Assembly: GCA_963747695.1 (NCBI GenBank)
Contig: CAVVFV010000003.1
Coordinates: 17,296 to 81,295, forward strand
Length of the DNA stretch: 64,000 bases
Origin: Candidatus Falkowbacteria bacterium
GTDB taxonomy: Bacteria > Patescibacteriota > Patescibacteriia > Patescibacteriales > WJLG01
Reading direction: 5' to 3'
Both the position numbers and the translations under genes were made by a program. Below, in pieces: positions 6,781-50,586 of this stretch. Below the pieces are notes generated by a model, which saw only the letters and a program-made list of their open reading frames with translations, was not told the DNA's origin and searched no databases. Position 1 is the stretch's first letter. Every line of letters begins with the position of its first letter.

Positions 6781-7698
6781 TTACGACTCAATTACGAATA
6801 AACGATCATAGCCGCCCAAATCCTTGAGAAAATCTTTGCGGCAGGCGGGAAAATTATCCCTGATCAGCTTGTCCATGGCGGCCTTTTGCGATTCATCGAT
6901 CTCGCCATAGATGATGATATTTCTTTTATGGAGGCCGAAGCGTTTATTGATCTGCTGGAACAAGCGGCGATAATGATCAAGACCGTCAACACCGGACAAT
7001 AGAGCCCTTTGCGGTTCATGGCGCAGGTCCGGCGATCGTTTGATCTGCGCGGCGGTCAGATAAGGCAGATTAGCGGTGATGATCGTCGGCTGTTTGAAAA
7101 TATTTTTATCAATAACATTAAGCAAATTGCTGTACAAAAAATTTATCCGTCCGCCAACCCCATTTAGCCGGGCATTTTGCCGCGCCACTCCGAGCGCCGC
7201 GCGCGAAATATCCAAACCCCAATATTTAATCTGATGGCCGGATAGATTTTTGGCTAACGAAATAATCACGCAGCCGGACCCCGTGCCCAGATCGATGATG
7301 TTCTTGATCGCGATCTTCTTTTCCCAGGTACTGATGATTCCCCGGCGCCCATGCCTGAAACGCCTTAAGACTTCCTCAACCATCAGTTCGGTCTCGGGGC
7401 GGGGGATTAGCACGTTTTTATTTACCTTGAAGTCCAGTCCATAGAATCCCTGATGTCCGGTCAGATAGGCTAGAGGAACGCCTTTGGTTCGATTGCCGAT
7501 CAGCCGTTTAAATCTGGCCGCTTGATAGAAATTAAGATTTTTTTCCGGGTAAGTGAATAAATATTCCCGGCTTTTACCCAAGATAAGCGACAAAATTTCT
7601 TCGGTTTCGAGATCAGACTGATCGATTTTCATTTTTTTAATTTGCTCTGAACCAAAAATCAGAGCCGATCGGATGTTCATAGAATTTGACAAAAGCAT
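6781..7698 (-). CDS. prmC: Release-factor glutamine N5-methyltransferase (PrmC/HemK)
   Basis: 305-aa ORF. SAM motif IIDLGTGSGCVIISLA; catalytic tetrad reads NLPY (ITANLPYL) instead of canonical NPPY. It is separated from prfA by about 700 bp. Confidence 0.82.
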   Translation of the reverse strand: MLLSNSMNIRSALIFGSEQIKKMKIDQSDLETEEILSLILGKSREYLFTYPEKNLNFYQAARFKRLIGNRTKGVPLAYLTGHQGFYGLDFKVNKNVLIPRPETELMVEEVLRRFRHGRRGIISTWEKKIAIKNIIDLGTGSGCVIISLAKNLSGHQIKYWGLDISRAALGVARQNARLNGVGGRINFLYSNLLNVIDKNIFKQPTIITANLPYLTAAQIKRSPDLRHEPQRALLSGVDGLDHYRRLFQQINKRFGLHKRNIIIYGEIDESQKAAMDKLIRDNFPACRKDFLKDLGGYDRLFVIES

Positions 7699-8027
7699 TG
7701 ACTAATAATTCCTAATTTGTTATTGTTTAATTATAGAGCTGAGTCTGAATCAGGGGCTGAGGAATCACCAGCTATGCACATCCGCCGGAAAGCCATTGCA
7801 TAGACCTAAACAGATTAGGCGAACCAGCTTTAGCACATTCAGACATCCATCGTTAACATTTGGCAACAAGGAGGAAGAATGTCGCCCCAGCTCATTACAC
7901 GGGAAATTTCAGCCGTTGACCATGTTTCTGAAATCTGTACTATTTTCGGGAAAGGAGGTGATACCATCTCGGTTGCGGGATAGTATAAACCGTTACCCGC
8001 CGAAATAGTATCAGAACTTAACGGCAA
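7699..8027. ncRNA. Helix-dense non-coding segment (strand and class unresolved)
   Basis: No credible ORF. Nested complementary pairs read directly: CTATGCA 7772-7778 / TGCATAG 7797-7803; atttcag...ctgaaat near 7906-7934; TACTATTTTCGG...CCGAAATAGTA enclosing GCGGG...CCCGC near 7949-8021. Confidence 0.35.
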
Positions 8028-8397
8028 AATAAGAATTATTATCGATCGGGCGCCACGGCAAATTTGAATCCGGTCGATTTTCCCGGACTCAAATCAGCGC
8101 AGGCATCCGCTAATTGCGCGTACGATTTGTTGCTGATTGGCGCACTCAGGCCAGCGCCCAATAGCCGGAACACCATCGGCGCGGCCAAAAACAGTGAGGT
8201 AAATGCACTATAGCATTTCCACTGTGTTACCCGGGAAATTCTCGCCCTGCGAGCTCTTTCCCGTTTTTTTATACGCAATCCGCTGGAGCCAAAACCGTTT
8301 CGGTCGCAGGCGAGTGGCGGATCGTGAAATCCGGCCGGACGACGGGATAACAAAAGTTGGGAAAGCCGCCAGTCACCGATCAATTGAATTCAGCGAG
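8028..8397 (-). ncRNA. Candidate large structured RNA, copy 1 (paralog of 49943-50555)
   Basis: GC-rich and ORF-poor with many helices, e.g. ATTTGAATCCGG 8062-8073 / CCGGACTCAAAT 8083-8094 (11/12 pairs). Four sequence blocks are collinear with the 49943-50586 element. Strand is inferred from that copy. Confidence 0.4.
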
Positions 8398-9450
8398 TTA
8401 AGCTTTATTTTTCAAAGCTTTTTCCGCCTGCTTGAGGGCGGCGATAATATCTTCCAGATTGTTTTCCATCGTTGACGTGATATTGCTCCAATTCTGTTTG
8501 ATCCGGTGGTCGGTTATCCGGTCTTGGGGAAAATTATAAGTTCTGATCTTTTCGCTGCGGTCGCCGGTACCGATCTGTTTTTTTCGAGCCGCATCCTCGC
8601 GGGACCTTTTTTCCTCTTCCATCTTCGCCGCCAATCGCGAACGCAAGATCATCATCGCCTTATCCTTATTCTGATGCTGGGATTTCTCATCCTGGCATTG
8701 CACCACGACATTGGTGGGCAAATGAGTGATTCGGATAGCCGAAGAAGTCTTATTGACTTTCTGGCCGCCCGGGCCTGACGAGCAATACGTATCGATGCGC
8801 AAATCTTTCGGGTCGATCACCAAATCGACATCTTCGACTTCCGGAACGACCGCGACCGTAGCGGTGGAAGTATGAACGCGGCCCTGCTTCTCGGTCTCCG
8901 GCACGCGCTGAACGCGATGAGTCCCGCCTTCGAATTTCAGATTGCCAAAAACATCCTTGCCTTTGACCCCGAAAACGATTTCTTTGAAACCGCCTAATTC
9001 GTTACGGCTCGATTCAAATACTTCCACTTTCCAGCCCTGCCGTTCGGCAAAACGCGAGTACATCCGGAAAAGTTCGCCCGCAAACAAAGCCGACTCATCG
9101 CCGCCGGCTCCGGCGCGGATCTCGATAATCACGTCTTTTTTGTCGTTCGGATCGGCCGGGTGGAGCTCTTCATCGATCTCGCTTTTAAGCTTCGCCACCT
9201 GCATTTCCGCTCCAGCCATTTCCGCTTGCGCCATCTCCTTCATCTCCGGGTCTTTTTCCTGGGCCGCCAGATCGCGGCTTTGCACAATGACCTTTTCATT
9301 ATTTTCCAATTCTAAAATCTTCGCCAGTAACTCCTTCAAGTTGGCGTGTTTTTTCCCGAGCGAAGCCAATTTGGCCGGATCGGCCGCAATCGCCGGATCC
9401 ATCAGCTGCGCTTCGAGATCATTAAACTGTTGTTTGATATCTTCGTACAT
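8398..9450 (-). CDS. prfA: Peptide chain release factor 1
   Basis: 350-aa ORF with SGPGGQKVNKTSSAIRITHLPT (GGQ motif). The codon-recognition tripeptide region reads RVQRVPETEKQGRVHTS (PET rather than PAT/PVT). Confidence 0.94.
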   Translation of the reverse strand: MYEDIKQQFNDLEAQLMDPAIAADPAKLASLGKKHANLKELLAKILELENNEKVIVQSRDLAAQEKDPEMKEMAQAEMAGAEMQVAKLKSEIDEELHPADPNDKKDVIIEIRAGAGGDESALFAGELFRMYSRFAERQGWKVEVFESSRNELGGFKEIVFGVKGKDVFGNLKFEGGTHRVQRVPETEKQGRVHTSTATVAVVPEVEDVDLVIDPKDLRIDTYCSSGPGGQKVNKTSSAIRITHLPTNVVVQCQDEKSQHQNKDKAMMILRSRLAAKMEEEKRSREDAARKKQIGTGDRSEKIRTYNFPQDRITDHRIKQNWSNITSTMENNLEDIIAALKQAEKALKNKA

Positions 9451-9625: not shown

Positions 9626-9916
9626 TTATTCCTTTTCAACCCGCTTGGCCGCCCGTTTGGCCGCTTTGGCGGTAAATTTATCTTTTTTGCTGACGTGTTT
9701 CCCGGCGATTTTATTGGACGCTTCCAATTTAGCCTGAAATTTTTCGACGCGGCGGGCAGTATCCACCAACTTCTGTTTACCGGTATAAAAAGGGTGGCAA
9801 GCTGAGCATAGGTCAACTCTCAATTCCGGCTTAGTCGAACCAGTGGTAAAGGTGTTGCCGCAAGCGCAAGTCACCTTGGCATCGGCATAATATTTGGGAT
9901 GAATTTCCTTTTTCAT
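9626..9916 (-). CDS. rpmE: Ribosomal protein L31 (Cys-containing, Zn-type)
   Basis: 96-aa ORF: [10 protein letters not shown]...VTCACGNTF...[15 protein letters not shown]. Confidence 0.93.
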
Positions 9917-49942: not shown

Positions 49943-50555
49943 AAAATAAGAAAGGACTGATTCGAGATAAACTCAAATCAGTCCTTACTGGAGGGCCGCC
50001 TTATCGCGGCCCAGACAGAGCAAGCTCGTGGGGAGCTCGCTAGCGGCAAATGGATTCGGGGAAGACGTACACCGGTCTTCACTCCCGCCATGTTGCCGGT
50101 TGCGCGGAAATCGCAATTGTTCGGAGGGCTGTTATGTCTACCTGCTCACAAAACAACGCTATTCCGCATTGATCCGTTCTGGTTCGCTGTGAACGCCGCG
50201 ACGCGTCATATCTTAACGCGCGCGCTGATTGGCCGATACAGCTTCGGCCGAGCGATTGCCGGAACGGATTTTTCTAATAAATTGCCTACCCCGGCAGATG
50301 ACCCGTGAAGATGCTCATGCGCCTCCACGGGATCTGGCCGGTAGTGAGCGGATAATGATGGAGGGTCTTGATAGACCCGCACATCCGCTCGATTCTCCGG
50401 ATACGGACTGTCCGCTCTGTTTCCGCATGCGGAAAGGAGGGCATTCGCTATCCCTTTTACGCTCAATAGCTTTACGCTGGGCGTGCATGATTGCGGGGAA
50501 AGGCAGCGCGTATTCACGAGAGAATCAGACTTTATAAATGTTCAATAGCGAAAAT
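49943..50555 (-). ncRNA. Candidate ~600-nt structured RNA, copy 2 (class unknown)
   Basis: A minus-strand TTGACA-17-TATTAT promoter sits at 50558-50586. A minus-strand intrinsic terminator (AAGGACTGATTTGAG-tttatc-TCGAATCAGTCCTT + tcttatttt) sits at 49943-49986. The interval is GC-rich, without a convincing ORF, and contains many local helices. Confidence 0.45.
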
Positions 50556-50557
50556 AT

Positions 50558-50586
50558 ATAATATCACAAATTAAATTAATTGTCAA
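50558..50586 (-). promoter_or_regulatory. Sigma70-like promoter (TTGACA-17-TATTAT) for the candidate RNA
   Basis: + strand tgtcaa 50581-50586 and ataata 50558-50563, with a 17-nt spacer. Confidence 0.7.

Follow-up and report, generated by a model that had tools for sequence, protein, structure and literature searches.

The window analysed here is a 64,000-nt (64-kb) stretch of contig CAVVFV010000003.1 from a Candidatus Falkowbacteria bacterium, and the element in question is the long spacer that separates prfA, coding for release factor 1 (RF1), from prmC, coding for the enzyme that methylates this factor. Both genes are on the minus strand, downstream of rpmE (9626..9916), with prfA at 8398..9450 and prmC at 6781..7698, and the intervening spacer is 699 nt long (717 nt from the annotated prmC start, as the database protein PrmC P0001, which is 100% identical, begins at M7, ATG 7680). 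An earlier note on this DNA had described the spacer as a helix-dense insert of about 700 bp that splits a normally adjacent gene pair, and had proposed that it was either a structured RNA gene embedded in the operon or a long leader for prmC. The description of the locus is borne out. The prfA-prmC gap is at most 30 nt in 83 of 136 distinct loci and at least 120 nt in 40 of them; with a PrfA query, 80 loci were gathered from species-representative genomes and 80 from metagenomes, and a few more were reached via close PrmC homologs. The relatives of PrfA put the window within Patescibacteria, close to Falkowbacteria. Additionally, the minimum free energy (MFE) z-score of the spacer against dinucleotide shuffles is -3.87, the same for either strand, and that of the transcript predicted below is -3.0 (100 shuffles).

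We consider it highly probable that the spacer holds an independent structured RNA gene, of about 540 nt (approximately 7733-8270), on the plus strand, that is, on the strand opposite prfA and prmC. The features on which this proposal is built, together with the remainder of the spacer, are the following:

7698..7726, plus strand: extended sigma-70-type promoter, predicted by a promoter scan (9 of 12 matches, TG present)
7733..7860, plus strand: 5′ domain, with the hairpins P2 and P3 predicted by RNAalifold
7868..7896, plus strand: helix P4, pairing the Shine-Dalgarno (SD) sequence AAGGAG (7868-7873) with CUCAUU (7891-7896), with AUG 7879 in the loop
7879..7983, plus strand: mini open reading frame (mini-ORF) of 34 codons (MSPQLITREISAVDHVSEICTIFGKGGDTISVAG), behind a strong SD and overlapping P4, P5, P6 and P7
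7912..8025, plus strand: central domain, closed by the long-range helix P5, which pairs GCCGUUGACC (7912-7921) with ACUUAACGGC (8016-8025)
7948..7970, plus strand: hairpin P7, tentative as drawn, with AGGUGAUA (7956-7963) between GG (7954-7955) and CC (7964-7965)
8026..8231, plus strand: lineage-variable 3′ module, with hairpins at 8062-8094, 8139-8164 and 8193-8227 (alignment A2)
8232..8270, plus strand: predicted intrinsic terminator, a nested stem CGGGAAA..CUCG/CGAG..UUUCCCG followed by U7 (8264-8270), from sequence and MFE structure
8271..8397 (127 nt), no strand assigned: unassigned stretch between the predicted terminator and the prfA stop codon

The predicted promoter consists of a -35 box TTGACT (7698-7703), a 17-nt spacer ending in TG and a -10 box TATTGT (7721-7726). 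On the opposite strand, the annotated prmC start codon is 18 nt away from this -35 box, and the predicted transcription start, near 7733, is about 50 nt from that codon and heads away from prmC. The same layout, TTGACn-N16/17-TGn-TAnnnT, is found at the same prmC-side place in all seven homologs described below. At the other end, the helix that had been listed as GGGAAA..CTCG..CGAG..TTTCCC exists and is the stem that precedes seven T residues; a simple terminator scan overlooked it because its “loop” contains an inner stem. Homologous terminators, with a G+C-rich stem and of the form CCGGAGAA..UUCUCCGG-U6-7, occur in all members and, in the short ones, the complement of the final prfA codons and stop codon supplies the U-tract. 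Thus, predicted signals for both ends of a transcription unit are present on one strand and are conserved in 7/7 homologs.

Comparison with relatives shows that the unit occurs in more than one genome. By blastn, the spacer matches only one other locus, L001, with 85% identity over 105 nt (8177-8281) and a weak match in the left half. Alignment and motif reading, however, reveal a common core in L001 (equivalent to L081), L002, L085, L161 and L163 and in the second units of L166 and L195, and a hidden Markov model (HMM) of this core recovers exactly eight distinct members, and nothing else, in the window and 195 loci. All eight lie between prfA and prmC, in the same orientation and in single copy, with unit lengths of about 300-555 nt (302 nt in L166 and 538 nt in the window). 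As the motifs and the 105-nt block persist even though the third codon positions of prfA differ by about 40% between these genomes, the RNA appears to be under selection. Judged by these comparisons, it is a member of a previously undescribed family, so far found in eight related Patescibacteria of a narrow clade. A pattern CCGTT..GRAAGGAGGTGATC also yielded 27 matches in viral contigs, with a best HMM E-value of 0.004 for a partial match; as family members, none of them score in the HMM, and they were treated as chance strong SDs.

Known families do not account for the element. Rfam at its gathering score, and ARAGORN for tRNA and tmRNA, gave zero matches in the whole 64 kb; with Rfam 15 at E ≤ 10, the best match in the spacer is c4-a1b1, at 18.9 bits against a threshold of 46.7, and the spacers of the seven relatives gave only chance-level Rfam matches. 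A tmRNA was considered, owing to a visual resemblance of GGGGCUGA (at 7753) to a tmRNA 5′ end, and was rejected when nothing else fitted. RNase P, 6S and signal recognition particle RNAs were likewise set aside, being absent from the Rfam E ≤ 10 lists, and their hallmark motifs were not seen on reading.

Folding with covariation argues for a defined structure. RNAalifold, applied to an unbiased MAFFT alignment of the 5′ domain from six members, predicts P2 (7772-7778 with 7797-7803, 8 pairs) and P3 (7805-7809 with 7815-7819, 5 pairs), and 7 of these 13 pairs are kept via changes on both sides. P2, already listed in the earlier note, is therefore recovered independently, and it covaries, its variants being UAUGCA/UGCAUA, UGCGCA/UGCGCA, CAGACA/UGUCUG, CGCGCGA/UCGCGCG and CACGCGA/UCGCGUG. 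The curated count gives 100% pairing for P2 and P3, and a third helix, P1, probably closes them into a three-way junction. The core was assessed in an unbiased MAFFT alignment (A4) and in a curated, helix-only alignment (A5). P5 is 88.5% paired in A4, and both partners change in 5 of its 10 pairs; the observed values were reached by 0 of 500 shuffles, and slid partners give at most 47%. For instance, P5 of L195 is GUCGUCAAAU/AUUUGACGAC, with three compensatory pairs. P4 is 77% paired in A4 and 94% in A5; its 3′ strand is CUCCUU in most members and CUCAUU in the window, and L001 has the compensatory form AAAGAG/CUCUUU. The outer stem of P7 varies (CGGGA/UCUCG, CGC/GCG, GGGA/UCCC, GGUUGG/CCAACC), in the curated alignment only. 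For the curated helix set as a whole, pairing extends to 98% of cells and double changes affect 23 of 34 pairs, in an alignment that was fitted to the helices and leans toward them. With entire units as input, in a raw MAFFT alignment, RNAalifold had initially yielded a poor consensus. Helices kept by compensatory changes are thus observed for P2, P3 and P5 in unbiased alignments, among only eight related sequences.

The 3′ module is far less constant, with a length of about 200 nt in the window, 170 nt in L001 and 20 nt in L002, and a range of about 20-170 nt in the other members. Only its last part is shared with L001. It includes the hairpin at 8193-8227 (CAGUG..CACUG), which the earlier note had drawn as CAGTG..AAATGC..GCATTT..CACTG and which does exist in both, with an A-U to G-C change and a U.G wobble.

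The best placed of the alternatives is that the transcript is an ordinary mRNA for a real protein of 26-37 amino acids, the structure only stabilising or regulating it, which we regard as unlikely. The start in the window reads AAGGAGG-N4-AUG, a strong SD lies 4-8 nt before the AUG in 7/8 members, and these seven members have an ORF of 26-37 codons, so that the SD, start and open frame expected of a small gene are all present. Moreover, small genes on the opposite strand occupy the slot of the distant relatives L013, L016, L025 and L056/L063. By contrast, the codon-position counts give no sign of purifying selection acting on the peptide. Among the four members that are free of indels, differences in the first 14 codons fall 36:31:32 at the three codon positions, without the third-position excess of the prfA control (32:8:244 in a 100-codon stretch of the same genomes). 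A 114-codon ORF on the minus strand gives a similarly flat 7:7:9 against L001, and Pfam found no match for 10 ORFs, which agrees with the initial impression that the spacer has no protein-like ORF. In addition, the conserved residues coincide with RNA motifs: a seemingly conserved Q-L-L is the anti-SD sequence CAG CUC CUU, and the second SD-like motif, GGAGGUGAU, is translated in two frames, as K-G-G-D or as G-K-E-V-I. In L166 the ORF is broken (UUG plus 7 codons) and the RNA motifs are retained, and about 350 nt of conserved or structured RNA lie outside the ORF. We infer that the constraint acts on the RNA and that, if the mini-ORF is translated, its peptide sequence does not matter.

In several distant Falkowbacteria-like loci (L013, L016, L025, L056, L063, L044, L009 and L011), the slot contains opposite-strand ORFs with a strong SD. 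Most of these have about 110-135 codons, judging from the spacer sequences; those of L056 and L063 are homologous, and the slot of L011, of about 1.6 kb, has several.

According to another reading, the spacer would be without function, either filler or what is left of an insertion (a mobile element or a decayed gene), and its helices would be incidental, which seems very improbable. The slot is indeed variable among sister genomes. In the closest clade (PrfA at least 79% identical) it is polymorphic: L082, L165, L167 and the contig of P0023 have no spacer, prfA and prmC overlapping in L082, L165 and L167, and the others have 400-1040 nt. Additionally, a 17-nt, A+T-rich inverted repeat, 88% complementary, brackets the conserved core (7703-7719 / 8025-8041), its left arm lying in the promoter spacer. 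However, this repeat is not seen in the homologs, the unit is single-copy, no target-site duplication or terminal repeat was found at the slot borders by comparison with empty sites, no transposase or coding remnant is present, and BLAST against phages and plasmids gave no matches, so the profile of a mobile-element remnant (a miniature inverted-repeat element or insertion sequence), a match to which the earlier note had named as a possible refutation, is not found. Compensated helices and motifs across genomes with about 40% synonymous-site divergence are hard to reconcile with decay.

A functional RNA on the minus strand, either an intercistronic prmC leader within a prfA-prmC transcript or a sense-direction RNA gene, is highly improbable. 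In its favour, both strands fold equally well and CCUCC-type sequences on the minus strand could mask ribosome binding. Furthermore, no separate prmC promoter was found (the promoter scan gave no minus-strand promoter within the spacer), so a sense transcript probably crosses it. The hairpin at 8062-8094 also pairs slightly better on that strand. Against this, the directional signals, namely the promoter and the stem-loop with its U-tract, are conserved in plus-strand orientation, and reading the helices on the minus strand would turn the G.U pairs of P5, P3 and P7 into A.C mismatches; in the curated alignment, the helix cells hold about 9 G.U against 1 A.C on the plus strand. Moreover, L082, L165 and L167 do without any leader and other relatives have unrelated sequence in the slot. 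We assign the RNA to the strand opposite prfA and prmC because of the direction of the promoter and of the stem-loop and U-tract, the excess of G.U and the U.G wobble of the conserved 3′ hairpin. The prmC leader of the earlier note, like a sense-strand riboswitch, does not survive these results, as the RNA runs away from prmC; the note's structured RNA gene is supported, with compensated helices, seven homologs and no coding signature, though not its embedding in the sense direction of the operon.

Weakest of all, and extremely improbable, is a type I toxin-antitoxin-like module, in which a short toxic peptide would be encoded on a structured mRNA and the sense transcript would be the antitoxin: the length of the ORF (about 30 codons), the masking of the SD by an internal anti-SD in P4 and the long-range helices do recall the hok, tisB and aapA (aapA1) mRNAs, and the distribution is patchy, but the mini-ORF peptides have no hydrophobic or membrane-spanning segment and are not conserved, neither an antitoxin promoter nor a separate antitoxin RNA gene was found, the unit is single-copy and strictly syntenic, and L166 keeps the rest with a broken ORF.

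If the preferred reading, a structured plus-strand RNA gene, is accepted, its two SD-like motifs deserve particular attention. The canonical 3′ tail of bacterial 16S rRNA is GGAUCACCUCC. The motif GGAGGUGAU (7954-7962), conserved in 8/8 members, is the complement of the canonical tail sequence AUCACCUCC, this tail being the general bacterial consensus. It is located 37-44 nt past the 5′ strand of P5 in seven members and about 25 nt past it in L195, which lacks the hairpin P6. Exact GGAGGTGAT occurs once in 64 kb, and AAGGAGG occurs 13 times in the window against 6.4 expected; two of these copies are in this RNA element, 84 nt apart, one of them at 7868-7874. Only about 9 of the 57 ORFs of at least 150 codons in the whole window have an SD-like motif upstream (positions -20 to -4). 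As few window genes carry an SD and GGAGGTGAT is in single copy, the SD-like motifs of the RNA stand out. In several ORFs, e.g., 22396(+), 42611(+) and 24990(-), a -10-like box is found 6-7 nt before the ATG; together with the scarcity of SD-like motifs, this suggests that leaderless or SD-independent initiation is widespread.

On these grounds, a function may be outlined. The product would work as RNA, and translation of the mini-ORF, if any, would count as an act and not for its peptide. The most likely effect is in cis, as the unit is transcribed against read-through from prfA and as neither a promoter nor a terminator was detected on the sense strand of the spacer, or can be made out there in the short forms, which abut the prfA stop and the prmC start. 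The promoter, placed 4-18 nt from the prmC start, would fire against prfA-to-prmC read-through, for prmC the single source of transcription that is apparent, and collision together with sense-antisense pairing would uncouple prmC expression from that of prfA. As the main function, this cis-antisense mechanism is derived from geometry and is no more than a tentative possibility; when the structured plus-strand RNA gene and the cis-antisense mechanism are put forward as one joint statement, we regard that statement as fairly probable. The two SD-like elements could, in turn, engage the anti-SD of 30S subunits, one being masked by P4 and the other presented on P7; that the RNA engages 30S subunits we infer from these motifs. 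It is also conceivable, although doubtful, that the RNA acts on the release-factor module as an antisense regulator that senses ribosomes and reports free 30S subunits or termination efficiency. Were this so, translation of the mini-ORF would unfold P5-P7 and set the extent or stability of the antisense RNA against prfA-prmC, and expression of the RF1 methyltransferase would be tuned in a genome largely without SD-led initiation.

Several considerations weigh against the preferred reading and its cis-antisense mechanism. Sister genomes have unrelated antisense units in the slot (L083, L164 and the A units of L166 and L195) or an empty one (L082, L165, L167), and the unit must thus be dispensable; any cis effect may be generic, or the slot may merely tolerate insertions. 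Partition-function folding is inconsistent across members as to the exposure of the P7 motif and the masking of the SD. The strongest covariation counts come from the alignment curated to fit the helices, and eight sequences from one narrow clade give weak covariation statistics. The ORF, kept in 7/8 members with a well-spaced SD, is compatible with a translated product, and one position of the hairpin at 8062-8094, mismatched as A.C on the plus strand, would be G.U on the minus strand. Finally, the promoter, start site and terminator are predictions, and the tail to which GGAGGUGAU is complementary is a consensus for bacteria in general.

The structured RNA gene may be a new family within a known kind, the bacterial structured or dual-function small RNAs, for which it is a candidate. 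Like SgrS/SgrT, RNAIII/delta-haemolysin and SR1/SR1P, it is a stand-alone promoter-to-terminator unit giving a structured RNA of a few hundred nucleotides with a short ORF and its own SD; unlike them, it has a non-conserved peptide and is set within an operon junction in antisense orientation, it exceeds most of them in length, and Rfam searches detected no homology. It resembles cis-antisense and excludon RNAs in being transcribed against a neighbouring operon, fully complementary to the read-through transcript, from a promoter that abuts the start of the downstream gene, but it has a covarying structure, an SD-AUG and an SD-mimic loop, none of which a purely antisense mechanism needs. As with OLE, ROOL, GOLLD, HEARO and the raiA motif, it is a long RNA of several helices that has a promoter and terminator of its own and was found comparatively, but it has no Rfam 15 match at E ≤ 10, contains an SD-AUG mini-ORF and is much more narrowly distributed. 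The frameshift site of prfB (RF2) likewise has an internal SD-like element within a short reading frame, ahead of a stop codon and at a release-factor locus; here, by contrast, the RNA is opposite the release-factor gene, the distance from motif to stop is 5-33 nt, all three stops are used and no frameshift product is evident.

Patescibacteria have tiny genomes, and a full-text search of the literature for non-coding or regulatory RNAs of Patescibacteria, or of the candidate phyla radiation, turned up nothing of relevance. Two traits make the element worth attention in this context: the display of GGAGGUGAU, a perfect complement of the 16S tail, where few genes use an SD, and the fixed antisense position between RF1 and its methylating enzyme. 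Should the RNA prove to engage ribosomes or to set prmC levels, it would give rare access to the control of translation in a lineage that is uncultivated.

The slot is, besides, a recurrent landing place for unrelated small antisense genes, and thus a tractable case of gene gain and loss in a normally fused operon. Apart from the spacer family, other antisense promoter-to-terminator units were found in it in L083 (3781-4184), L164 (2034-2500) and L161 (unit 2, 1465 to about 1900). The A units of L166 (about 2160-2500) and L195 (about 2090-2500) are homologous to each other and unrelated to the spacer family, and they are candidates for a second RNA family. At least four unrelated kinds of antisense unit are therefore present in the closest clade: the spacer family, the L166A/L195A pair, the units of L083 and L164, and unit 2 of L161.

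The 127 nt at 8271-8397 contain a long imperfect hairpin on the minus strand, GGUGACUGGCGG...CCGCCACUCGCC, with an inner hairpin CGGAU..AUCCG to which GGGAU..AUCCC corresponds at the matching place in L001. The stretch is entirely absent from the short members L002, L085 and L163, and the promoter scan found no promoter in it on either strand; it may be the prfA 3′ untranslated region or the remnant of a second unit.

A second element of the window had been linked to the spacer in the earlier note, which regarded the right half of the spacer as a paralog of 49943-50586 and the left half as unique:

49945-50586 (about 600 nt), minus strand: second unit, between folA and a gene for a 185-aa protein

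Its promoter (50586..50558) is TTGACA-17-TATTAT with TG, with 11 of 12 matches, its predicted 15-bp terminator is at 49986..49952, and its MFE z-score is -8.07. Rfam, at both gathering and permissive scores, gave no family and only chance-level matches, and the unit is a candidate large structured non-coding RNA in its own right. The proposed paralogy was rejected: blastn and the core HMM gave 0 matches between the two elements, blastn against all slot units of relatives also gave 0, and the Smith-Waterman score of the spacer against 49943-50586 was reached by 24/200 and 9/200 shuffles in the two orientations, i.e., at chance level. The words GCTGATTGGC and GCCGGAAC, common to both, are short and not collinear with the other short match, and, as the two units are predicted on opposite strands, they would be sense in one and antisense in the other. 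In fact, blastn and the core HMM confirm that the left half of the spacer has no counterpart elsewhere in the window, and the division between halves has to be redrawn, the left being the conserved family core and the right the variable 3′ module, the terminator and the final 127 nt.

Two minor observations concern the loci of relatives. In L164 (956-2033), prfA was called in two pieces, of 264 and 82 aa, which could be a frameshift, a pseudogene or an assembly error. The rpmE-prfA-prmC-DUF3048-rplY neighbourhood, as in Patescibacteria, is found in L001/L081 and in many loci retrieved with the PrfA query, and the titles of those metagenome-assembled genome records look wrong, one reading “Candidatus Nanoarchaeia archaeon” and many “uncultured Gammaproteobacteria”.

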